A stretch of 62,734 nucleotides of DNA, filler included, from Dirinaria sp. TL-2023a (lineage: Eukaryota): the NCBI GenBank assembly GCA_051941275.1. It is 7 parts of 7 records of this genome, joined end to end, with 100 filler letters (N's around TTAATTAATTAA, not from the genome) between each part and the next. Parts side by side here need not be neighbours in the genome. Positions count along the whole stretch, not along the records: positions 17,990 to 26,870 come from JAVEBF010001129.1; 6 more parts are not named here. One strand, 5' to 3'. Shown here piece after piece: positions 3,001 through 53,877 of the stretch. The position numbers were made by a program, and so were the translations under genes. Below the pieces are notes generated by a model. That model saw only the letters and a program-made list of their open reading frames with translations, was not told where the DNA came from and searched no databases. How positions within the stretch are numbered: the first letter of the stretch is position 1; every line of letters starts with the position of its first letter.

Positions 3001-4021
3001 TCTCCAAAACAGTGTGGTCGCACAAAGACGACTGTACTTCAATCATGGAGTTTTGGCCCCTCACTCAGACTGTGGACTGTGACGAGGCGCATGCCACCTC
3101 TCCTTCTTCGGTGATCCTTATTCCCTACCTGAGGTAAGGTCATTACATATTCACTACCTACCTTATTCAGGGTCTGCTGCTCACGTCACTCCTCGACACC
3201 GACCCAACGAATCTGCGCTCTGTTCGCCACACCCTCTACTGTTACTGCCTGCTCTGTTCCTCGTGCGCCCATCAGCTAGTCTCCTTCAGAAGCGAAGTCT
3301 GGACGGCAGGTCATGGGACTCTGCCAGTATGGATCGCCCCGAATCTCTTTCTATGGATACGACAATGGATGTGTCCCGAATAATTTGAGCATTGCTCCCC
3401 ATTTGCGTTCTTTACGGCCGATGTCCCTCCTGGAGGCTCTGTATTCCCTCTCCAGGACTGAAACAGCGGTGAGGGTATGGTACTATCTCCTCACGGACAG
3501 GACGTTGTGGAGGAATGAATCATTCTATATTTCAGTATCTTGATAAGGTTACCCGGCTTGCGTTCACTTGCGCTCACAAACGGTGGCGCAAGCCAGCAAA
3601 GCCAAGCACTTTCCTTCTCCAAATTGCGCCGTTCTCTCTTTCATGTGTGTGGTTTCGAGTTGTAAATGCGTCTTTCAGCTCGTCAATCAAATCCGTCTAC
3701 CCTTTGAGTAATCTGATGTTCTCAGCCTAGTTCTGAGAGCTCAGCCTGTTCCTCGAACATGGCCCGTCCTGCAGAGCAGCCGAACAGGGACGTTTTAACG
3801 CAGATCATAGCCTTGCCTCCTTAATTGAAAAGACCACAGACAAAGTGCAGCTGCCATCAGTTGCTAATGGCACTCCCAGCCACAGGCTAGTAATGACACT
3901 CTCCAGTTTATGCCATCTCGGACTTCTGGAATCTTCTCAAGCTAATGCCTTCAATGAGTATGCATGACGAACTACGTTTCATCAAGCTTCAACATCCTAT
4001 TTCCTACAAGCTTTGTCAAGA

Positions 4022-6496
4022 ATGTCCGGTTTCGATGGTAGCCCTCGAAGCCTTCGCTCCTTGCCAGGACACAGCCCTTCTGCGGAGAAGTCTGCCGATC
4101 CACCGGTCGGGGATGTCGAAATCGATCTCGAAACACTCCGACTTTCACAGGAGACTATCCCGTCTAATCCCAATGCTACCAGGCGGCTACCGCAGCGTGC
4201 CGATTTCCCTTCATCCATAAGTATAGACATAGTGCAACCGGTAGAGAACAAGCAGATTAAATTCGCTATCGTATTGCTACAAGATCACGGGGTAGCGCAA
4301 AGGTCGCTTGAGCAATTAGCGCGCAAACTGCAGCGGAAGTATCCTGAGAATACATATGTCCTTATCCGTTGTCAAGAACCAACCAGCGATAATATGTATG
4401 GCAGGGCCGGTGCGCAAGAGGATCATACTTTTGGTAGGACTTGCTGGATGCTACTTTTGGACGTGATCAGAGACTGCCTCATACTCAAGTGTGGTTTCAA
4501 AACGAGGCAGATAGTCATCCTCGGACACGGCCAAGGAGGTACCGCAGCCCTCATGGCGGTCTCACTGTGGGGTTCTACACAATTCGCGGGTGTCATTGCC
4601 ATAGGAAGTCCGAGACTTACTCTAGATTGCCAGACGCCTGCACTCCAGCTTGGCAACTTCCCTGAAAGTAATACTACCAACGCGGTCCTCCCTCAGATCA
4701 CCGGTTCAAACCACTTGATACCAGCAGACATGCAAAATCTGGCCGACATAACACCTGAACTGTCAGAAGGACTCTTGCAGCCGATAAACGAGTTTTTTGC
4801 TCATCGACTGCGGCGAGAGGAATGGACCAAGCAGGCCATTCTTAGCCTTGGTGAGTGATTGACGTACTTAGCCGTGCCCGAATCCTAACGCCTAGGACAG
4901 ATGGTGGTGGCATCAGGGGTTATGCCAGCCTATTGATTTTGAGAGAACTCATGAATAAAATCGGAGACGAAGAAAAGAAATACGACCTCGAAGAGGGACC
5001 TGCACACTCAAGCTTTTTCCCAAGCCCATTCCGGCCAATTAGTGCACAGTCCGCAATGTCAAAAGGCGCTGCGCCCAGTCCTGAGTTACTTGAAGGCAGT
5101 CCCATTGTTCCTTCGCCACATGGAAACCTGCCGAACTCATCCCTCTTCTATCCATGCCATTACTTTACGTATGCTGCAGGAACAAGTACTGGAGGGTATG
5201 AGTATAATGTGCGAGTACAGTAGGGACAGAATGCTGAATCTGCTCTAGGCTGATAAGCATCATGCTATCAAGATTACGAATGTCAGTCGATGAGTGTATA
5301 ACAGAGTATAAGCGCCTCGGGCAGAAAGTGTTTGGTCATCCACGACACTTATCACTAGGTGGCTTGACTTGGCACAAATACAATCACAAGATTCTTGAAG
5401 ATGTAGTTCGCAGTGTCACAGCTCAGTACAGTGACCAGAATGAAGACCGTCTGTCCGAGGTTCAGTTCCCGTCAAACGAGTCCCTATGCAGAACGTAAGC
5501 TTCACCTACTGTGGAGATAGCACAACGTACTAATACATCTGAGCACGAAGAGTCGTCCTAGCTTATGCCAATACTTCCGAGAACGCTGAAGTGCCGCATA
5601 TCTTTCGCACCTATGGGACTCCCACATCTCAGCCTGATCGGACCAAGAGCATACCAAGACAAAGATCAGCAAGGAGCCATGGGCCGGCTCCTGGGTTACC
5701 GATATGGCAGATTGCTCGCGCTACGTCTGCAGCTCCGGGCTACTTCCCACCTATGAAGATTCAGAGAGCTCGTAGCCTGAGTCCCAATGAAGTCATTCTA
5801 TTTAAGGACGGCGGGTTTGGAGCCAATAATCCCAGCAAAGAGGCTCTTGAAGATATAGTACACAAGCACGGAGCAGGCATACGAAGTATCGGTCCTTTCG
5901 TCAGCGTTGGTACTGGCGCTCATAGTGAGCCTATATTCGCCAAAAAACCGGGGAAGTGGCAGAATTTCAAGGCAAATGTAAGGGCTGCGGTGGCGCATCC
6001 CGCGAGAACGAAAGGTACAGCTGATGACATCGCATACCTTTCCAGCCCTGACGGAGAAGAACAATTCCCATACTATCGATTTGAAGGAGGTGAGCATCTT
6101 GGTAGGATTGCAATGGATGAGTGGAAAAGCGTTCGATTTCCCACCATGCGAGGTAAGAATAGCATGCGAGGTTATAAAACGATTGACTCCATGGACCAAG
6201 CCACGTCAGTATATTTGCTGGACCGCGACGTACAAGAAGATTTAAAGGAGCTGGCCAAAATCCTGGTCAAGAGACGTCGACTACGTGCTAAAGATTCTTC
6301 TGCTTGGGATAAGTATGCGTCGGCATCGTATTTCGAGTGCACCCATAAGGGATGCGAACACAGGCGCATTGAAACGAGTGACGAATACAAGGAGCATCTG
6401 AGGGACGAACATGGCAAGAGCATGACGCGCCAGGAGTTAGAAAGCGATATCAAAAGATCGAAACGGTGCTGGCTATATAAAAGCAAAGAGCCCTAA
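4022..6496 (+). CDS. Patatin-like phospholipase with N-terminal alpha/beta-hydrolase-like domain and C-terminal C2H2-like finger (4 exons, ~771 aa)
   Basis: Exons 4022-4850, 4901-5195, 5249-5494, 5551-6496 joined by GT-AG introns stay in frame (2316 nt). Splicing restores the patatin motifs LSLDGGGIRG and AGTSTGG-LI; also ARATSAAPGYF and the catalytic FKDGG. N-terminus has ILGHGQGG; C-terminus has CTHKGC...HLRDEH. Confidence 0.88.
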
Positions 6497-8895: not shown

Positions 8896-8995
8896 NNNNN
8901 NNNNNNNNNNNNNNNNNNNNNNNNNNNNNNNNNNNNNNNTTAATTAATTAANNNNNNNNNNNNNNNNNNNNNNNNNNNNNNNNNNNNNNNNNNNN
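8896..8995. other. Artificial contig linker N44-TTAATTAATTAA-N44
   Basis: 100-bp spacer with a palindromic six-frame stop, identical at six positions. Confidence 0.98.
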
Positions 8996-13873: not shown

Positions 13874-16800
13874 TTAGAAGTAGTTGAAGCCGTTCATAGC
13901 TTGACGGCCGTAGGCTGACAGGGGTTGTTGGACTGTACCTTGGTGCTCAGAGGGGTATTGGCCGAAATTTGTAGAGCCATTGCCAAATTGAGGCTGCCCA
14001 TAATTGACCGGAGTGGAAACCGTAAAAGTGGCCATATTAGCAGGATAGCCGCCATTGGCCTGAGCTGCGTATCCTTTATTCCCGCCACTATAGCTGCTAT
14101 AGCCATTTGCGCCTCCGCTGGATTGCCTAGCCATAGAGATCTGGCCTGGATTGGTTGGGTCAATAGGCGTCCCCATGCCGCTACGACGTCCCGGACCATC
14201 GCTGGCAGCGATCTTGCTCTGCAGTCGACGCCCGTACGGAGTCTGACGAATGGAAGGCAGAATTGGACGGATGGTATCGACGAGCTTAACGCGCGTGTCA
14301 GGATCTGCATAGTCCAAAGCAGTCTGGATGACATAGTTGGCAAAAGAGTCTCGCAGCATCTTCTCAAGTTCGTTGCCGTTAAGCATCTCTTCGATCATCA
14401 TACGTGAAACGCTCGGCTGAGCTCCACGGAGGCACTTCTCGATAACGTTGGAGCTGAACTTTTGTTTGGACAGAAGCGGAATGCTGCCCTGAAAGCTATA
14501 GCAAAGAGGGTCCGTGAAAGCAGGCTCGCCAAGGTCCACGATGTACTGAAGCACATAGTTGCCGAAAGGGTCCTGGACCAGTGAGAAAGCATTTGCAGTG
14601 ATTTGGCTGATGAGCTGCGCTTTCTGATGGCCAGAGGCGTGGTCGATGCAGCGCTGTAGCACGCAGCAGCCATGACGGTGGGTCCCAACGATCACACAAT
14701 TCGTACCGACAGCGTCGAAGATAAACTAAACGGGTTAGCCGCTGACGGATTAAGTGACAGCAAGAGTGCATACCTGAGCGTCGTCAGGGGTGAGACGGTT
14801 GAGGCACTTCTGGATCACATGGTTGCCATTGAGATCTTGGATCAATTCAACAACCCTATCGTGCAGAGCGAAGATGATGGTTTGGATTTGCTTGCGGGTG
14901 GATATAAATTCGATCATCTTCTGTAGAGCGCGGGTACCATGCTGATTAAGAGCGATCTTAACCATAGACGGGGCAGCATTGTTGATTAGTACCGTACGCT
15001 GGTCGTCGTTGGAGTATTCAAGGAGCTTCTGGCAAAGGTAATTGCCGAATGGATCGGTCATCAGTTCGACGACGTGAGCATTGGTCTCAACAAAGATGAG
15101 ATGGACATGCTCAGGATTGCCAGACTCTAATTGCTTCTGCAAATAGCGGCACCCATGCTGATCTTTGCAAAGTCCGTATATCTCTCCTTGCACATGTTCC
15201 AGACGAACATTGTTAAAGCGAGCGTTTTCCTCGCTATTTTGCATGCGGCGCTGTTGAATGATCTTAGCCTGGCTATCCTGGAAACGACCCGGCTGACCGT
15301 AATTTTGAAAAGGGGCAAAACTGTTCTGTTGCTGATAGGTTTGAAGCTGCTGACTAAAAGCTGTAGGGTTATTCATCTGCAGTGGTGTCATGCCCATGCT
15401 CATCAACTGCATCCCATAGCCACCGTAGAATGAAGGGGAAGCATATTGCGGCGAATTGACTTGGGCAATCTGATTAGCCATGGTGTCAGTGAGAGATACC
15501 GGTGGATTCGAAGAACTATAAGAAGCAGCACTAGCTTGAGGACTAGAGATGTTCTGCTGGTAGCCATTGCCCTGTAAGGCAAGCATTGGGTCATCGCGAC
15601 GATTGTCGGTACCAGATAGCTCACGGCTGTGACGGTTGCCAATTGCATTTGGTGGGATGCGGCCAAGGCTTGCATTATGGTTGTGGAAGTGCTGCTCTGC
15701 ATGCGTCTTGGGCGGCGTGACTGTAGGGACGGCGCCATTGGGATTCTTCACAGTAGGGATGTCATTGGTAGAGTACGAAGACTGGATATTTGCCAGGCTT
15801 GGTCGTCCGGAGCTGCCATCGCTGGAGGCAAGTTGCCCCGGTAAATTTGACTGAGCGTAAGCGGCCAAAGAGGCTTCCATTGAGTGGCGATTGAGCTGAC
15901 GAGTACTGCCAACCATCTCTGGCTGCTGAGTGCTGGAAGGAATCCCATTGTTACTCTGGGATTTCTGTGCTCCATTGGATAGCTCTTGCGGCAGGTTCGG
16001 CTGAGAAGAGCGGTGACGTGCAAACGAAGCTGCATCGTGTAGCTGTGCTTCGGGACCTGGAGACTGCGACAAAGCCAGGTCTAGCGCAGCGGAAGAAGCA
16101 GACAGCTGTAGACAACCATTAGCGTCGGAAGCTAACACTAGTCAGAAGAGCTAGCTTACCAAACCTGGATAGCCATCACGACGAACTAAAATCGGGAATT
16201 TATCGTCTGTGTCGTTCATCTGCAAGTACGTCGTAACATCAGGAGATGTTGCAGCCTCTTTCTTTGCCGCTGCCTTCTCGTCGTCGTTGTCAAATAAGAA
16301 CCCAGTCGTATTGATATGGCCAAGACCCATCATCGACGCATAGTCGGTCGCAGTATCATCCTTTCGAGTGCGAGATCCTGTGACAGGCATCGAATAGCGA
16401 TTCTTCGCACTAGTGGGTGATTATTAGCCTGTTACCAAAACGCACGCACGGCGCAAACACTCTGGCACCAGAGATACGCCTCAAGGAGCGGAACACTTAC
16501 TTCGCAGGTGCACGTTGGCTATTTCCTATGATGTCTTGGTTGTAGGAAGCGATCCTATCATTGGAGCCACGCCTGGAGCCCGGGACAGACTTCGAGGGAA
16601 GCGTATCATTACTAATGTGGTTGTGCAAGGTTTGTGCGATCTCCGATGGCGGAGAGGTCAAGACCGATCCAGAGCGGCTACTACGGTTATTCAAGCCTGG
16701 CGGGGAGGTCAAGCTGGAAGATGAGTACCGGTTGGTACGTGAGAAGACCGAAGGATATATCTGGTCACGATATTCTGGTGGAGTCGTTGGTTCGCTCTGA

Positions 16801-17889: not shown

Positions 17890-17989
17890 NNNNNNNNNNN
17901 NNNNNNNNNNNNNNNNNNNNNNNNNNNNNNNNNTTAATTAATTAANNNNNNNNNNNNNNNNNNNNNNNNNNNNNNNNNNNNNNNNNNNN
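17890..17989. other. Artificial contig linker
   Basis: N44-TTAATTAATTAA-N44. Confidence 0.98.
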
Positions 17990-20900
17990 CTTTCCTTGTC
18001 TCAACAATCATCTTTCAAATCATTGCATGGGTTTCTGGCATCTTCAAGATTCAGTCTACGAGAATAGAATAGATTAGTAAAGTATCGGCAACGGGCCCTG
18101 TGTCGCCGCGCTACAATATTTAGATGCTGAATCATCTTTAATTCACGACGAGGTCAAAGTCGCACCTTAAGATATTCTTTCAATAAAGCTATCATCTGCA
18201 AAGAACTCTCATGAAAACCTCGTCAAAAGTAGTATGGAGGTACTCTGGTTTGGACACTTTGACCCACTCAGTGAGCTTAAATCTTGCCGCATCAGCATCC
18301 GCCTGACTTATTATGAAAGCAACGCGAGCGCCAGAAGCTGGCATGATAATTATCAAGTAATAGTTCATACTTAATGCCTGGGATGGTAGCGATCGTAATT
18401 AGAGCGAATGGAGTTCATTCACGCAAAAAAATCTTGTGTATCCTCGCCGTGTGATTCTTGAAGACCTCAATGCTGGGGAGGACTAGTTCTGCCGCCTTGC
18501 ATTGCGGATGCGGACACTGGACCTCATCCCCTGGGGCGAACCTCTCCAGGTGCTTCTCAACCTCGTTCATCATCTGGTGGGGTTTGGAGTATTCGTAGGT
18601 CCGATGATGGTATGGTAAGCTTTCGTTCCCCAGGCAAAACAGGCATTGGGTAGGCAGGCATTCTATACGGAACTCATCTTTCGCATCCCTGTAGATGCCG
18701 TTCACCGTTTCATCCGACTCCTCTTGCTTGATGGAGACCTTGGGCCGACCACGGCGTTGGGCTTCCTGCCGATGGCATAACGCCGTCCGGGCCTCAATAG
18801 CCTTGATCCTTCGCTGGAATTTTTGTTCATCTGTCAGACTCTCTCCGGGGCTGCAGACCGATCGGACGACCTCAGCCCGCTCGAGGATGTTGTATGTGAA
18901 CGGCTTTGCATGTGGTATATCTTCAGCGGATGCGTGAGAGGCCGTCTGCACGGAAAACTGAGCATCAAAGGCTACAGTATCAGCCTTCCGAAAGTGTCGC
19001 TTCCGGGCTTGCGCAAGCATATCCACTCGCAATCTCTTTTTCACAGCATTCAAGCGAGCCTCTGCTCTTTTTTTCTGCTCGAACAAGCTTGTCCCTTGAG
19101 CATCCTTGACAGCTCTATACCCTGCTACGCGAAGTCGCTCAGTAAAAGCTTTGTTTTTTTGGCAGAGCTTGATCACTTTAGGATGAAGGGCCAATTTCGC
19201 CTTTTGTTCCGATGACAACTCGGTCGGTGCGCTCGTATCGGCTGTCAAGCTGGCAAGCCGGGCCATTTTTTGTACTACTTCGTTGGATGGGCGTCCTAAG
19301 TAGCAGGCCTTGGTATCGAACCGTACCTCCTGGTCCAGATAATAACCGACGGCGCCCTGTCTATGATCAAAGGTTTGATCCCGAACGGAAGCGGGAGCCT
19401 CATCTGTTGCAAATGCATCACATCAGTGTCGGAAATATCCTTCGGGGGTGTTTTGGAGGCCAGGGATCAGGAGGGGCATACATACTGTTGACGACATTCA
19501 AGAGGCCACGTCGAAGGCCATACTGAGTGAAAGAGTGTTGAAAGCCGGCCTTCTCCCCAAGTCGCTTCAAATAGCCGATCCACGTCCCTGCACGTAAGGG
19601 TTCCTTCGATGATGTGCCGGAATCAGCCATGCCACGTTTCTTCTCGCGGAAGACTGGAAGGTCCAAAGCATCACGTCTCCATTTTAGTGTCAAGCTTTTC
19701 TTGTGCGGTGGCATCTTCGCCCAAAACATGTTCTCCACATTTTTTGCTGATTTGGCTTCAAAAGCGTCATCGTGCAGCGCAAGAGATATCAAGTGATCGA
19801 GAAGGGAAAAAAGCGGATCGTCATCTTCCCCGTCAACGACTATGGTTTTTCTATGAAAGCAAAGCTTAGTTTAAGATCTTCATCCGCCGCGTGGTATTGG
19901 GGGGAAGAGGAGGTTGGGGGGTAAAAGCGGCGTGCGAATAGAGCTTACATCCGCGGATTATTATCTTCCCCTTTGGTGTGAAGAAGCGTGGCCTTCATAA
20001 AGACAAGATTTGGTTTCCCGGGGTCCTCATTGGCAACAATGGTAATGGTGAAATGTCGATACAGGAAAGTCCGAGTTCCTTCAGGCCCTGCATCATAATC
20101 ATCATCGGTATCACTGCCCCGATCATCAGTGTAGAGTGAGCTGAACTCGCTGTCGCTGTCATTAATAACATCATCACTAATTCGGCCGGGATCACTGTCA
20201 ACTTCGCAGCCAGGATCGATGATCACAGTATTGCAGCTCCGCTTCGTCCTCATGTGATGGTGATGGCTGCCGTCAGCTTTATCCTCCTGCGGATCCATTC
20301 TTCCATTTTTAGCTCTGCCAATGGCCTTGGTGTCCGGTGGTTCGTCCAAATCATTAGGATCATCGAACTTGACTCGGGTATCAAACAACGAGCAGGGTCG
20401 GCAGCCAAAAAACACGGCGGCCAGGATACCGGTGGCAACCTGCACTCGCTGCCGCTCGTCCGTATATGTCGCATTGTCCAGCGCCCAGTGTGTATAGAGA
20501 AGGAGGTACAGGTCGTCCAGGCTGATCACCGGTTTCTTCTTGGGGAGAGTCCGGAGGCCATACTCGTCGATAAGGAGATTCATGTACTACACGGGGCCGA
20601 GAGGTAAGCGTAAGGCTTCCTGAGGAGGGGGAACGGGCATCTCACGTTCTTTATGTCTCTCCTCTCAAATGAGTCAAAGTCTCGATCAGCTTTATCAAGG
20701 ATATACATTCTCAGAACCCTCCAGTAATTCTTAAAACTTGATGCCGCATCAACTCTCTCGTAGTGATCTAATGTCCACTTCCAGAAGACCTTAAAGTCCG
20801 GTACTTGTGCTTGCTTGAGAAAATCGTGGGGTTCGTAGCCTAACTCGTAGCAGTATCTGGTTAATGAATTATGGATGTTAGCAATAGTCGCGGACCACGC

Positions 20901-21710
20901 TGGATGTTCTTTTACCGATCCCATTTCTGCACAACCGATTTCAAGCTTTTTCTCGTGTTGTCGGCAGCTTTCGGTGGAGTTTTGCCTTGCGCTGCAAGTT
21001 CTTCACGCTGCTGCTTGTAAAAACTTGGCGGCAATCTCCGGGGCTTGCGGCGGAGTTGTCCCATAGTGTCGAGGTGAGTGACAATTGAAAAGCTATGTTC
21101 CCGGGGGTGGCCAAGATGGGTTACCGGGGCGTGATGACTGCGAGCAACAGACTTAACAACCGAGGGGTTGTTGGAGCGGCGGAGTGAAGGCCAGCTTCAC
21201 ATATGCACTAAGAAAGCGAAGGGTTGAAGAAGTAAAAGGGTGGGCGCCAGACTCTACTTATTATGCTGCCTGTCTTGCAGAGACTTATAAAAAGAAGGAA
21301 GGGAAAAGAGAGATGGAGGAGGGCCACAACAGGCGTTGCGCAATGGCTGCAACAGGGATGCCTTAGAACCGACAGGGATCCTCGGCAGCGCTTTTACTTA
21401 GTGCGGTGCCGGGATCAGCGCTGGCATCGCCCGACGATGAGTCCCGCCAACCCGAATGAGGGCTTCCCACCGTGTCCGGGTTGCTTAAAGCAGCTTCCAC
21501 ACCAGCCCTTTTCGGCCTCCCAAACACCCCAACCGAGATACTGTCTGTAAATTATGGACAGATAGATGGGCGGAGGAATTGGCCAGGATTTGCTTGTTGG
21601 AAGTTTCTAGCTGAGCAGATGTACAAGCTGGTAAATGTGCAGTCGACTTTTCGCCGGTTGCGCCTTGCGAACATAGGTACTTTACTTATAGTGAGATATG
21701 CTGTGTAACT
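17990..21710 (-). mobile_element. Putative captain-proximal end of a Starship element; body would run off the left contig edge, right boundary approximate
   Basis: Captain-like gene points away from a conserved host gene (GH47) about 1 kb upstream and toward the contig break; captains are the first gene of Starships. No second boundary or cargo visible. Confidence 0.5.
18415..21064 (-). CDS. DUF3435-type tyrosine recombinase (Starship captain-like), 5 exons, ~783 aa
   Basis: Exons 21064-20916, 20856-20646, 20586-19949, 19850-19486, 19403-18415 (2352 nt, no internal stop, all GT-AG). Motifs FFGCRPCSL, LHTKG, LISLALHDDAF, LPVFR, YGLRRG, RDQTFDH...GYY and C-terminal CLFC/CPHPQC...H...H. Confidence 0.88.
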
Positions 21711-22123
21711 CGTATCTAGATTGGCTATCTACAAAAATTACACATTTCGAGCATCCTTCAAAAATCCTCCTTGGTGGCTTGAGATCCTAGATTGAGATTG
21801 ACTGATCCTATCAAAGGCATCAACGTGCTCGTACCTTACCTTATTCTTTCAGCTTTGCGGCCTCGAACTCCGCTCGCTGCTTGGCGGGGACTTGGCTGCT
21901 TGGCACAAGAAAAGGAGGAGGCCGAAGGGCCTCAGAGGGTTCTTTGTGAAGGCTCTTGCTCAACTGCGCATTCATAATACTGTAGATCCAGTGCTATGAC
22001 GAGAAATTCATCGTTCTATCTGATCACATTCTGTCCCAGCCTGCGGCTCTTTGGGCCTTCGTGTTCCTCGGTCCCAGCTTAGATGTGGGACCTGTCCCGT
22101 TTCGAACGTCGTCGGTATCGACA

Positions 22124-25100
22124 ATGCTTCGACTTAGGCGGTACAGAGTCTTCGCCATATTTGCGGTCATTGCGATAGGACTACTATACCATTTTCGAGG
22201 TCTCGGAGGCATTGATCATCCTCTACCCAGCGCCGATCTAAAAGACTTTGGAGATTTGAAAAACTTTGGAGGTCTCAAGCCAGATGAAGGTCTTAAGTCA
22301 GAGGGAGGTCTCAAGTCAGATGGCGGTCTCATAATAACTACGAAATCCCCGTCAATCGCTTCGACCGCCTCGGAAACACGACCTGCCACCTCGTCAGCAG
22401 TCGTGAAAGCGATCGAAACTACCGGCGCATTCAGATCTCCAACTGTAAAAGAAGATGGAACGAAAACGGCTACACCTACCAGCAGACCCGCAAAAGCTTC
22501 TCATGTCGCAACCGCGAAGCCTAAGCTGGGGCATGCTTTTGATATGCAAGAAGATGATGCCGTACCTGAAGCAGATGACGAGGACGCGGTGTCCAAGATT
22601 CACTGGAAGAAACAGAAGGAACACTTCCCCATCCCTACTGAAAGCATAATACAGCTACCGACTGGCAAGCCCAAAGCCATTCCCAAAATCCAACATGCTT
22701 TCTCTGATGAGTCGAACACCGAGAAAATGGATCGCGAGAAGAAATTGGGCATCATAAAAAAGACCTTCGAGTTTTCTTGGGCGGGCTACAAAAAGAATGC
22801 TTGGATGCACGACGAATTGTCTCCCGTGTCCGGGCTGTTCCGCGATCCTTTCTGTGGTTGGGGTGCGACGCTTGTGGATAGTCTAGACACGTTGTGGATT
22901 ATGGGTCTCAAGAGCGAATTCGAGGAAGCAACCAAAGCAGTGGGGAAGATTGACTTCACAACCAGCATACGGAACGATATTCCCCTGTTTGAAACAGTCA
23001 TTCGATACCTTGGAGGTCTCATCGCTGCCTATGACCTGGGAGGCAGAAAATACAAAGTTCTTCTGGATCAAGCAGTGCAATTGGCCGAGGTCTTGATCGG
23101 AGCGTTTGACACTCCGAATCGTATGCCAATGACCTTTTATCTCTGGAAGCCAACATTTGCTTCGCAACCGCATCGCGCCAACACTCGTGTCGTGCTCGCT
23201 GAGCTAGGCTCCTTATCTTTAGAGTTCACTAGGCTCGCACAAATTACGAAGGAAGCGAAATACTATGATGCGATCGCACGAATCACTAATGAGTTCGAGA
23301 TGTGGCAAAACAATACGAGACTACCGGGACTGTGGCCCAAGAAAGTCGATGCTTCCGGCTGCCAGAAAGACGACACATCTGTAATGTCTCCCATTGGGGA
23401 TGCGATGCGGAAGGGACCTGGGGTGAAGGCGATGAACCAGAAGATTGAAAAAGCCCCTAAAGCATCAAAACCTGTTGATTATGGCGAAGCCAAAGCCGCT
23501 GAATTATCAGGACCTCTTGATGATGGCGAAGCCGCAAGAATAGCTGGCATGGAAAAATATCAAATAAAAACGGGCACAGGTAAAGGGCTCATGAATGAAG
23601 CGGACGATGATGAAAGTCCGTCGACGAGATCTACCAAGTCCCCGTTGGACAAGAGGCAGCTCACAGAAGATTGGCCGGAATCCACCTCGCTGCTTGGTGA
23701 AGCTGATTGCAAGCCCCAGGGTTTGGCCTCGCCACCATTTACCTCGTCAGAGGAATTTACCATGGGTGGCCAAGCAGATTCTGTCTATGAGTATCTTCCC
23801 AAAGAGTACATGTTGTTGGGAGGGCTGGTACCTCAATATCAAAGCATGTATGAATTATCAGTCGAAGCGACGGACAAGTATCTTCTCTACCGTCCGATGA
23901 TCCCAGACGAGAAAAGAAACATACTGTTCTCTGGCCAGGTATCGACCTCTGGCAGGCTTGACGACCCAGATGACGTCAACCTCAAGGCTGAAGGTACGCA
24001 TCTGACTTGTTTCATAGGTGGGATGATAGGAGTAGGGGCCAAGATATTCAATCGTGAAGATGATCTCGAGCTCGCCAAAAAGCTAACAGATGGGTGTGTC
24101 TGGGCGTACGAATCGACTACTACTGGCATTATGCCCGAAGGCTTCCTTACTCTCCCTTGCGACGACAGGGCGAAGTGCCCATGGAACGAAACTCGCTACT
24201 GGGATGAGCTCGATCCTTTCCGCGCAACAAGACACTGGAGAGACCAGGCAGATCCGGATGTAGTAGATAAGAAAAATGGAGCAATCGATCAAGAAGCCAA
24301 GAAGGCCAGTGGGAAAGCTGGCGCAAGTAGCCAGAAAGAGGCGCAAGGGACAGTATCATCAGCGTCCAAGACAGTCACTTCCGAAGAAGCTGTTGCCACG
24401 CAAACGAAGACGCCGTCAGTGTCGGGATCCACACCATCGGAGCCAGCTGCTACTTTCTCGAAAAAAGCTCCTCTTGCGAAACGCCAACTTGGAGACATTG
24501 AAAATGATGCAGTGGATTCCTCATCTTCTACCAGCAAAGGCGCAAAATCTGGTTCTTCCGGAAAATCGACAAAGGCCAAAATAGGCAAAGAACCCTTGGA
24601 AAGTGCTGGTGGCTCGGGCAAAAAGAGTCTCTTAGACCCTTCTGAAACAGATGAGGAAAAGTCCGAAACGAGTACCTCTGCCACTCTGTCCCCCACCGCG
24701 GAGGCAACCATACCGGTCATCCCGTCGTATACGCCACCGCCAATACCTACCCAGGAGGAATATGTAAAGGCAAGGATTCGAGACGAGCGACTACCGCCCG
24801 GAGTAGTCAGCGTATCGAGCTCCAAATACATTTTAAGGCATGTCAATGTCTTCTATGCTAGGAGGCAGCTAAGCTAACAGATCATGCCCATAGGCCTGAA
24901 GCGATTGAATCTGTATTTATCATGTGGAGGATCACAGGTGACAACTACTGGCGGAAAAAGGGCTGGCAAATGTTTGAAGCAGTCCACAAAGCCACGGTCG
25001 CAGATTATGGTGCTTCGGCTATAATGGATGTCACTAGCGAGACTCCAGTCACACTTGATGAAATGGAGTCTTTCTGGCTGGCGGAGACGCTGAAGTACTT

Positions 25101-25244
25101 CTACCTTCTGTTCAGTGACCCAGACCTAATCAGCTTGGACGACTACGTCCTGTGAGTAGCAACTGCTTACGTACGTCTTTGATCTGCCGTTGCTGACCCG
25201 AGTATAGTAATACGGAAGCGCATCCCTTCAAGAGGCCCAAGTAG
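22124..25244 (+). CDS. Class I alpha-1,2-mannosidase (GH47), type II membrane protein with long low-complexity inserts
   Basis: N-terminal anchor [87 protein letters not shown]. Exons 22124-24837, 24894-25151, 25208-25244. Confidence 0.95.
22235..22330 (+). repeat. 18-bp coding tandem repeat, about 5.3 degenerate copies ([32 protein letters not shown])
   Basis: Units start at 22235, 22253, 22271, 22289, 22307 in the mannosidase stem. Confidence 0.8.
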
Positions 25245-25764
25245 ATAAGTATAGCATAGGCGACGGCGTTTTGGCTGATCAGTAGACAAATGCTGATCAA
25301 AAATGCATGGCGTTCGGTCAGCGTGTATCATATCTGTTCGCGAACTTTTCGTGTCCTTGAGTCTGGAAGGATGTTGGTATATACCATATTCGTTCTCAGT
25401 TCGCTAAAGGGTGGTTGACTGCACTCAGCGTAGGGTCATGATGGGCAAACTGTGGGTTTCCCCATAGTCACGCATGCACGATTATTGTAAGAGTAAAAAA
25501 TCAGTCGGAGAGCGAGTGAAGTCGCTTGAAGATCACTCATATCAAAATTAGCAAATTTTAGGGCTTTCGTGCTTGTATGATATTGCCGCAATATCATGTG
25601 GCTGTAACTCGTACTCGTACTCGTACCTTATTGTTGATTCTGCTTTTCTGCATATGACCGATTGCCGAACACACATCCCTACATGTAAACAGCACTGCAC
25701 TCTAATGAAGCCACTTCAGAGACCTTAGGCTGAGTTGCGGCCATGATACCTTCCGCAGTGAGCA

Positions 25765-26870
25765 ATGGACTTTGAGGTCTCCTATACCCTCGAGAATGAG
25801 CAGCAATTCTGGGACGGTGTGTAAGCCAGCGCCGCCACTGCAAGCCCCCTTCAAGCGACTAACATCGATCATGTAGAGCTCGACGAGATCGTATCAGCGC
25901 ATTGCGAATCCCACGTAGCTATCGATAACACTCTTCGATCATATTTACACTTCATCACCAATTACAAAGGTCTCCCCCAACCCTTCCGCTTTCCTTGCAG
26001 CAGGGGGGGATTTCAAGGTTGCTGAAAATTCGCAACAGCGGAATATCTGCAGACGGAATATGACATCGCTCGCTGCTCGTACAAGCTCCTGGAGTCGGCG
26101 CTTTTCGCCGCGCACCAGGAGTATGTACGAAGGCAGATAACGTACAGTTTACTCCAGGTTCGCAGACTGCACGCCTTTCGAAGAATGAGTGCCTCTTTTA
26201 CTTACCACGGGCGGCGTAGGAAGACTCAGCCGACACTCTTCACCTGATAGTCGCCTTCCTCCTGTTCGACGGCAGGCAAAACGATGTTACGTTCGAGATG
26301 ATGAATGAGGAGGGCGCGTTCCCGAGATTGGTGGAGCTCATTTTGGAGAAGAAGGATGACGACGCGGGCCTGCATCGGATGCTATTGGAGCTGCTTTACG
26401 AAATGTCACGAATACAACGAATACGAATCGAAGATCTAAGTGAGTCCCTTTTATTTTGGGAAGCGTCATCAATGATCCCTGAAGCTCATCGTCATCATAC
26501 TGACGGCAAAACCCTTATGAAGTGCTAATTGAGGACGACTTCATCGTCTACATGTTCGCGATCATCGAGGGTCTCTCGGACGACGTCAACGACCCATACC
26601 ATTATCCCGTTATACGAGTTCTTGTACGCATGCTCTCCCATCTAACGCTTCCTTCCAAACACCGAAGTACCACCACTCTTCCAAACTAACCACCTCTCCT
26701 GCGCGTCACAGCTGATCCTAAACGAACAATACATGGTATCCGCGCACGACCCATCCCCCTCGCAGCCGCAATCCCCCAGCACGCAACTCACAAACAAAGT
26801 AATCAAAATCCTCTCCCTGCACGGCTCCGCCTGCAAAACCTTCGGCGAGAACATCATCCTCCTGCTCAAC
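25765..26870 (+). CDS. LDB17: Ldb17/SPIN90-family protein, multi-exon, 3'-truncated by contig end
   Basis: [17 protein letters not shown] start; later exons encode [62 protein letters not shown]. Confidence 0.85.
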
Positions 26871-26970
26871 NNNNNNNNNNNNNNNNNNNNNNNNNNNNNN
26901 NNNNNNNNNNNNNNTTAATTAATTAANNNNNNNNNNNNNNNNNNNNNNNNNNNNNNNNNNNNNNNNNNNN
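26871..26970. other. Artificial contig linker
   Basis: N44-TTAATTAATTAA-N44. Confidence 0.98.
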
Positions 26971-35844: not shown

Positions 35845-35944
35845 NNNNNNNNNNNNNNNNNNNNNNNNNNNNNNNNNNNNNNNNNNNNTTAATTAATTAA
35901 NNNNNNNNNNNNNNNNNNNNNNNNNNNNNNNNNNNNNNNNNNNN
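35845..35944. other. Artificial contig linker
   Basis: N44-TTAATTAATTAA-N44. Confidence 0.98.
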
Positions 35945-44817: not shown

Positions 44818-44917
44818 NNNNNNNNNNNNNNNNNNNNNNNNNNNNNNNNNNNNNNNNNNNNTTAATTAATTAANNNNNNNNNNNNNNNNNNNNNNNNNNN
44901 NNNNNNNNNNNNNNNNN
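44818..44917. other. Artificial contig linker
   Basis: N44-TTAATTAATTAA-N44. Confidence 0.98.
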
Positions 44918-53777: not shown

Positions 53778-53877
53778 NNNNNNNNNNNNNNNNNNNNNNN
53801 NNNNNNNNNNNNNNNNNNNNNTTAATTAATTAANNNNNNNNNNNNNNNNNNNNNNNNNNNNNNNNNNNNNNNNNNNN
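53778..53877. other. Artificial contig linker
   Basis: N44-TTAATTAATTAA-N44. Confidence 0.98.

Follow-up and report, generated by a model that had tools for sequence, protein, structure and literature searches.

The window analysed here, 62.7 kb of joined contigs (62,734 nucleotides, filler included) from Dirinaria sp. TL-2023a (assembly GCA_051941275.1), carries on the minus strand of its third contig (JAVEBF010001129.1, window positions 17990-26870) a gene for a DUF3435 tyrosine recombinase of the captain type, i.e., of the type that serves Starship elements. We regard the integrity of this gene, its family, fold and residue conservation, the homology boundary on its 5′ side and its non-syntenic, partly decayed relatives as established. 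The recombinase probably sits at the edge of a cargo-bearing element; cargo would follow it, and this copy would still be active. Newly seen in this analysis are the 5′ edge at 21542 with its Hephaestus-like target motif, the conserved terminal block, and the decayed relatives at unrelated sites.

The gene occupies positions 18415-21064, exactly from stop codon to ATG, and is made up of the following parts, the domain labels being those of the predicted fold:

20916..21064, minus strand: exon 1, with the ATG at 21064; residues 1-49 plus 2 nt.
20857..20915, minus strand: intron 1, 59 nt, GT..AG, with a CTAAC branch-point-like motif; its splice sites are kept in the related locus L001.
20646..20856, minus strand: exon 2, to residue 120; part of the core-binding domain.
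20587..20645, minus strand: intron 2, 59 nt, GT..AG.
19949..20586, minus strand: exon 3; end of the core-binding domain, box I R183, an acidic disordered insert of ~100 residues and the beta-hairpin with K325.
19851..19948, minus strand: intron 3, 98 nt, GT..AG.
19486..19850, minus strand: exon 4; core of the catalytic domain with YGLRRG (Y443, R446); DUF3435 match of 80.3 bits, profile positions 97-209.
19404..19485, minus strand: intron 4, 82 nt, GT..AG.
18415..19403, minus strand: exon 5 and stop codon; carries H468, Y476 as candidate nucleophile, an extended helical stretch and, near the C-terminus, two Cys2-His2-like motifs; DUF3435 match of 80.8 bits.

When rebuilt by script, the five exons gave 2352 nt, that is, 783 codons and a stop codon with no internal stops, and the intron donors read GTAAAA, GTGAGA, GTAAGC and GTATGT. 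An earlier note on this DNA had proposed an intact frame of about 783 residues spliced through four introns from fragments of open reading frames (ORFs), and that proposal holds. A full-length protein relative, P0001, a 789-aa DUF3435 protein from a Variospora metagenome-assembled genome (MAG), is 76.3% identical over residues 1-782 (1-788 in P0001), and the match runs across all four exon junctions. At the third junction, our model (KGEDNNPRIKTIVVDG) is closer to the family consensus than the deposited P0001 model. Among the proteins of the window organism in the collection searched, no DUF3435-family protein of 433-1381 aa was found, models shorter than 433 aa not having been searched for; since the neighbouring GH47 protein is present there, the deposited annotation probably lacks a full recombinase model. 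RNA contigs were available from four runs of one sample of a ~97% identical relative. Nothing in them covered positions 17990-21850, from which neither absence nor silence of the gene follows; they stop short of the putative empty site and element boundary.

Exons were scored separately against the Pfam DUF3435 profile (PF11917, cutoff 25.8 bits). Exons 4 and 5 matched with E-values of 1.8e-22 and 1.3e-22, the latter over profile positions 218-418, and exon 3 gave a weak match only (13.7 bits, profile positions 2-48); the matches are colinear with the profile. Exons 1 and 2 yielded nothing relevant in the Pfam search. Given the E-values of exons 4 and 5 and the match to P0001 across four junctions, the recombinase frame is far beyond chance. 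A DUF3435 match, the absence of which would have refuted the proposal by the terms of the earlier note, is thus present and strong; together with the protein relatives and the predicted fold described below, it supports assignment to the captain-type DUF3435 tyrosine recombinases.

The catalytic residues named by the earlier note are all found in the order it gave: R183 in GCRP (codon 20400-20398), K325 in HTKG (19974-19972), Y443 and R446 in YGLRRG at residues 443-448 (19522-19520 and 19513-19511), H468 in FDH (19365-19363), and the GYY pair Y475 and Y476, the codon of the latter being 19341-19339. Judged from the sequence, this is the R-K-YxxR-H-Y order of a tyrosine recombinase. In an alignment of 18 full-length relatives, the positions of R446 and Y476 never vary, and those of R183, H323, K325 and H468 are conserved in at least 90% of the proteins. 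Y443 and Y476 are spaced by 33 residues. The C-terminal ~80 residues hold two Cys2-His2-like patterns (CxxC...H...H and Cx4C...Hx4H) that are visible in the family consensus and have no counterpart in Pfam; they give the protein a tail resembling zinc fingers.

Searching the protein collection with P0001 returned 28 matches, all with PF11917. Nine of these, 45-69% identical, come from Lecanoromycetes or carry no source name, and Aspergillus and Histoplasma proteins of 780-792 aa are 34-37% identical to P0001 at 93-99% coverage. An exhaustive search of 1.84 billion representatives retrieved 1552 relatives at E <= 0.001, of which 136 reached E <= 1e-30; many were fragmentary. For a quick maximum-likelihood tree, 27 rows were used (the window protein and 26 of the 28 P0001 matches, the short or weak P0022 and P0028 being left out; the set holds no Tangerine reference). 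The window protein pairs with the Variospora protein with a support of 99 in the Shimodaira-Hasegawa-like approximate likelihood-ratio test (SH-aLRT), inside a clade of nine rows (SH-aLRT 99) whose named members are all Lecanoromycetes and which is distinct from a 13-row Eurotiomycete clade. No mention was found in the literature under the locus tags of six homologs.

The fold was predicted by AlphaFold2 for P0001, the 76% identical homolog, as a proxy for the window protein, from an 18-row alignment. The mean predicted local distance difference test score (pLDDT) of the model is 64.9, dropping below 50 in the acidic insert (residues 190-301) and in the segment with the Tyr (475-488). With VIA-align, the best chain was Cre 5crx_B (Z 9.2, root-mean-square deviation 4.1 A, 254 residues, model residues 37-491); XerH also gave Z 9.2, and lambda Int Z 7.2; 37 of 321 chains reached Z >= 8, rows 1-24 were all tyrosine recombinases and the top 21 were all Cre or XerH. 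The superposition on Cre that the earlier note had called for was thus obtained on the proxy over both domains. In Foldseek, the top 14 rows were all Cre (target-normalised template-modelling scores of 0.30-0.58, most at least 0.5), and behind them came lambda Int, Tn1549 Int and XerH. The helices between residues 41 and 180 of the proxy match Cre from its residue 41 on, and over residues 1-190 the proxy and the window protein are colinear. By this model, both the core-binding and the catalytic domains are present, and the predicted structure is a two-domain tyrosine recombinase fold.

To place the gene in its surroundings, metagenome contigs were scanned with exon 5. The scan returned 15 loci (L numbers below), of which the near-identical pairs L002/3, L007/8, L010/11 and L013/14 leave 11 distinct ones. 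The region upstream of the gene could be aligned for seven sequences from five distinct loci (alignment A1: the window, L009, L013/14, L004 and L007/8). Homology sets in sharply at 21542, 478 bp upstream of the recombinase ATG: the mean pairwise identity in 30-column bins is 0.33-0.46 upstream of 21556, 0.73-0.77 at 21530-21471, and 0.4-0.8 from there to the ATG. Flanks beyond this edge are unrelated among the loci. Three features lie at the edge or between it and the gene:

21539..21550, minus strand: TTAC(N7)A motif, TTACAGACAGTA, which spans the point where the conserved block begins and may be the core of a target site or direct repeat.
21420..21542, minus strand: conserved 5′ subterminal block, the putative element end or recombinase site, which starts with AGTATCTCGG, holds GGCCGAAAAG and has the palindrome-like core GCTGCTTTAAGCA(G/A)C.
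21065..21419, minus strand: moderately conserved region, probably promoter and 5′ untranslated region.

At the offset equivalent to the TTAC of the window, the sequence is TTAC in L013/L014, where the whole TTAC(N7)A is exact as it is in the window, and differs by one base in the others: TTAT in L009, TAAC in L007/L008 and TCAC in L004. No ORF was found between the homology and composition boundary and the recombinase ATG. The palindrome of the terminal block, GCTGC-TTTAA-GCAGC, has one mismatch in the window (21471-21500, minus strand), lies at L004:5710-5724, and shows no mismatch in most relatives; a role in recombinase binding or as a hairpin is possible. A second match to the terminal-block pattern in L007/L008 proved to be a chance match. 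Scans of the recombinase contig with Rfam and for tRNAs found nothing, so no 5S rDNA or tRNA target is present on it.

Composition also changes at the edge in several loci. The flanks L009:1-399, L013:1-736 and L008:7500-7945 are AT-rich (GC 0.17-0.33, TpA/ApT 1.2-1.6, substrate index 0.2-0.7) and resemble DNA altered by repeat-induced point mutation (RIP) by the usual thresholds of these indices, and the element side is normal. RIP-like flanks beside captains free of RIP suggest insertions into repeat regions that had already been mutated.

The earlier note had held that a fixed syntenic copy between host genes in all relatives would speak for a solo or domesticated recombinase. Neither the GH47 gene that neighbours the recombinase nor its upstream flank was found beside any of the 15 related loci (11 distinct), and one metagenome record set holds four distinct recombinase copies. 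The closest copy, L001 (L001:395-5114), is 91.9% identical at the nucleotide level over window positions 21347-18388. It is a pseudogene: it has two frameshifting deletions (10 nt at codon 121 and 8 nt at codon 479) and three in-frame indels. A 9-nt deletion lies beside the box I Arg. Moreover, its terminal block is lost, with a different sequence in the 5′ position, and a 1.7-kb insertion with an unannotated 280-aa ORF (3733-4572) lies 27 bp past the stop codon. Comparison by tblastn revealed frame changes or internal deletions in L009, L011 and L013/14 as well, the other loci not having been checked for stops.

These observations bear on the idea that the recombinase is stranded or domesticated, i.e., that a selected host function preserves it, or that it has not yet had time to decay, its element being gone or immobile. 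The ratio of nonsynonymous to synonymous substitution rates (dN/dS) between the window gene and L001, 0.19 (NG86) to 0.33 (YN00) over 770 codons, fits that idea, as do the host-like composition of the gene (GC 0.51, TpA/ApT 0.57, substrate index 1.35, the same as in the GH47 gene, and no RIP) and the report in PMC13486527 that the Tangerine element is fixed at one site in Xanthoria parietina. It is hard to reconcile with the patchy multi-copy distribution on unrelated flanks, with a closest relative that is a frameshifted pseudogene, and with a conserved non-coding terminal block behind a target-like motif, which is expected of a transposon end and not of a host gene. We therefore consider a stranded or domesticated gene quite unlikely.

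One further observation concerns L008, where a fragmentary second captain (L008:18361-18851, residues 202-337, 42% identity) follows the full captain at a distance of 7.4 kb and on the same strand, with P450-like and multicopper-oxidase ORFs between the two. This double captain may represent tandem or nested elements.

On its downstream side, the recombinase contig offers 425 bp, the first part of which is common to the window and L001:

18056..18388, minus strand: downstream stretch common to the window and L001, 85% identical; the homology ends at ~18056.

No auxiliary gene was found on the 8,881-bp recombinase contig. In L009 and L008, DNA of normal GC content stretches at least 11.7 kb and at least 13 kb, respectively, behind the edge with no second terminus. 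The genes that follow the captain vary from locus to locus: BTB and NACHT-WD40 NOD-like receptor (NLR) genes in L003, the latter 6-9 kb downstream; an AAA+DUF7025 gene in L001; and cytochrome P450 and multicopper oxidase genes in L007/8. L011 holds a TPR/DUF7708 gene, and in L004, a ferric-reductase FAD domain is encoded upstream. Different downstream genes behind a conserved captain fit the variable cargo of Starships, and they are also compatible with a compact element made of the recombinase only. DUF7924 genes were observed 3-4 kb downstream of the captain in two loci, L005:7869-9275 (E 5.6e-94) and L009:6324-7387 (1.3e-54 and 6.4e-35). These two loci are unrelated, and DUF7924 may recur in the lineage as a passenger or as an auxiliary gene.

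Several results weigh against a captain heading a cargo-bearing element. The contig ends 425 bp past the recombinase stop, and no cargo, 3′ end, pair of terminal inverted repeats or empty site is visible. The TTAC is exact in only two of the five distinct loci and is seen at one end only. Neither DUF3723 nor patatin was found when 126 ORFs (130 aa or longer) of 10 among the 15 related loci were examined. Homology to L001 resumes after the L001 insertion for ~330 bp and ends at ~18056, ~360 bp past the stop, and between copies with 81-89% identity it is lost at the stop or no more than ~220 bp away from it. What the copies can be shown to have in common is therefore limited to a unit of ~3.2-3.5 kb. 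As to the fold, it is that of a 76% identical homolog with the mean pLDDT given above, below 50 in the Tyr-bearing segment; Foldseek against the PDB gave no match at E <= 0.001 (best E 0.097), and a sequence profile against the PDB retrieved none of its chains at E up to 10.

The short shared unit is what one would see if the element were compact and free of cargo, a solo captain or Crypton-like element of ~3.5 kb running from 21542 to ~18056 or to just past the stop. Copies sharing only the 5′ block and the gene, the parting of the window and L001 at ~18056 and of the 81-89% identical pairs close to the stop, and the failure to find DUF3723 and patatin in relatives all accord with such an element. 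So does a 17.9-kb candidate with a tyrosine recombinase (tyrR) only, which the authors of PMC13486527 dismiss as a false positive. Against a compact element, the 11 aligned gene ends revealed no conserved 3′ terminus past the stop. Neither a direct nor an inverted repeat of the terminal block turned up within 4-13 kb downstream in the window or in L004, L008, L009 and L013, and in L009, L013 and L008 at least 7-13 kb pass with no return of the AT-rich flank. The protein, moreover, has the full captain architecture and groups with the 780-aa Aspergillus DUF3435 proteins. On balance, a compact recombinase-only element appears unlikely, and our preferred interpretation remains a cargo-bearing element with this captain at its edge.

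If the preferred interpretation is right, the recombinase would be the first gene at the 5′ edge of the element (~21542, behind TTAC(N7)A), ~380 bp from the start of the GH47 transcript, and the element would extend toward lower coordinates, off the contig. By analogy with HhpA and Hephaestus, the recombinase would bind the conserved sequence at the element ends; Y476 would cleave, R183, K325, R446 and H468 would activate the phosphate, and Y443 would stand in for the canonical His. The whole element would then be excised and reinserted at sites resembling TTAC(N7)A, as is proposed from the same analogy. One may go further and suggest, tentatively, that Lecanoromycetes harbour a Hephaestus-like Starship lineage that targets TTAC(N7)A and has a conserved ~120-bp 5′ terminal recombination block with a small palindromic core; the window copy would then be a still active one in the GH47 promoter. 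In a bolder variant of this suggestion, the basic form would be a minimal ~3.5-kb recombinase-only shuttle that takes on cargo occasionally, a living intermediate between Cryptons and Starships.

Beyond the edge lie the host sequences:

21543..21985, no strand: unique sequence beyond the element, acting as promoter region for the divergent GH47 gene, with no homology to any related locus.
21986..25155, plus strand: GH47 alpha-1,2-mannosidase-like host gene outside the element, 100% identical to P0029 (PF01532), with orthologs across Lecanoromycetes.

The GH47 gene is confirmed over 21921-25548 by RNA contigs of the ~97% identical relative, which start at 21921-21933, some 380 bp away from the edge at 21542, with introns at 24836-24891 (the printed ends are AG..AT, the cut being ambiguous by 4 nt) and 25152-25207. 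Further RNA contigs, at 25697-26870, confirm a multi-intron gene to the right of GH47 that runs off the contig.

Since the short contigs of this assembly were binned from a metagenome, one may ask whether this contig comes from a co-occurring fungus and was binned into the MAG by mistake. The closest relatives of the GH47 protein are three collection proteins (83-87% identical), after which the closest named ones are from Heterodermia (71%) and Physcia (70%), with many from Teloschistaceae; among named relatives, GH47 is thus closest to lichen fungi of the same or neighbouring orders. Composition is uniform along the contig, and the nearest named relatives of the captain are all Lecanoromycetes. 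A foreign origin of the contig is accordingly very improbable.

The window itself is a composite. Seven size-sorted contig pieces of 8895, 8894, 8881, 8874, 8873, 8860 and 8857 bp, of which the third (17990-26870) carries the recombinase gene, are joined by six identical linkers, one per ~8.98 kb, each consisting of 44 N, TTAATTAATTAA and 44 N, read directly from the sequence:

8896-8995, no strand: artificial linker.
17890-17989, no strand: artificial linker.
26871-26970, no strand: artificial linker.
35845-35944, no strand: artificial linker.
44818-44917, no strand: artificial linker.
53778-53877, no strand: artificial linker.

Because the N run at 17890-17989 is such a linker, the DNA to the left of 17890 is not adjacent to the recombinase contig, and the advice of the earlier note to extend the sequence left of 17990 mistook a junction between contigs for a sequencing gap. 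Any finding in the window that spans a linker is affected in the same way, neighbours across linkers not being physically adjacent. No sequence common to the captain contig and the other six window contigs was found, nor any common to the related loci and those six. On the neighbouring contig, a long ORF at 14750-16141 (minus strand) resembles Pumilio/PUF repeats, as judged solely by eye; this is a common host gene unrelated to the recombinase.

Among the known vehicles of large horizontal transfers in filamentous fungi, Starships rank first, and work on what they do in lichen fungi has only just begun (PMC13486527). Captains of lichen fungi are already in print, and the gene described here is an ordinary addition to them: according to PMC11162782, Lecanoromycetes have 8 of the 11 earlier captain families, and PMC13486527 (2026) reports 1,508 tyrRs from 554 lichen-associated genomes, including Phoenix, Galactica, Tardis, Prometheus and the new, Lecanoromycete-only Tangerine family, Tangerine itself being described in Xanthoria. 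A single captain gene alone leaves the picture of the field unchanged. An intact full-length captain with a mapped 5′ edge is nonetheless a handle for locating the rest of the element in a long-read assembly, for asking whether Hephaestus-like target choice reaches beyond Eurotiomycetes, and for a mini-element assay with a lichen captain. Annotations of MAGs made of short contigs probably miss such recombinase genes, and at 8,881 bp the contig is too short for element-level pipelines, just as the earlier note had anticipated when it wrote that the fragmented assembly would hide the find from them.

The recombinase can be compared with known systems at several distances. With Cre, XerH and lambda Int it shares the predicted two-domain fold (Z 9.2, 9.2 and 7.2) and the order of catalytic residues, and it differs from them in its low identity (9-14%), the acidic insert of ~100 residues, the C-terminal extension of ~300 residues and the Y that takes the place of the box II His. 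Like CryptonF, it would belong to a eukaryotic DNA transposon moved by a tyrosine recombinase, and the small, cargo-less size of CryptonF elements fits the ~3.5-kb shared unit; unlike CryptonF, it has the full DUF3435 profile and captain length and no 3′ end has been found, and Cryptons are the outgroup of captains in published trees. P0001 of Variospora and the Aspergillus and Histoplasma proteins are colinear with the window protein from end to end and have no described function or element; the name "FluG domain" on the Aspergillus and Histoplasma DUF3435 proteins is the label of the source only.

The Tangerine system shares with the window a Lecanoromycete host, a captain that is the first gene near the 5′ end (a putative one in the window), and elements split up in short-read lichen MAGs. 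PMC13486527 describes Tangerine-family captains as having lost the core-binding domain, or retaining a vestige of it, in 88% of cases, and gives the type captain as 283 aa long without active sites 1 and 2. The window protein, in contrast, has 783 aa, a full core-binding domain (37 to ~180 of the proxy, as aligned to Cre) and all active sites, and its ATG lies 478 bp from the edge versus 1,390 bp in Tangerine. P0149, a 283-aa protein 94.7% identical to the C-terminus of the window protein, was rejected as a relative of the Tangerine captain: it is an ORF-only gene call on L001 that begins past the catalytic Tyr, so its match in length is coincidental and gives no evidence for Tangerine membership.

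A close likeness is to Hephaestus of Paecilomyces variotii. Its recombinase HhpA is likewise a DUF3435 protein with a Cre-like core-binding and catalytic fold and a Tyr for His in the YxxR box. Both HhpA Y381 and Y416 are needed for transposition, as stated in PMC10104507, and the second essential Tyr is spaced like that of the window protein, ~33-35 residues past the YxxR Tyr. The host is a Lecanoromycete and not a Eurotiomycete, and the comparison pairs the one end present in the window with HhpA as described. PMC10104507 also gives an experimentally defined Hephaestus target, TTAC(N7)A. According to PMC11162782, TTAC is the direct-repeat core throughout the Hephaestus family and YxxR is the signature of captain clades 1 and 3. 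As in Hephaestus, the captain would come first at the 5′ end, and a TTAC(N7)A lies at the putative edge; at the level of sequence motifs, the YxxR box and this edge together point toward clade 1 and a Hephaestus-like behaviour.

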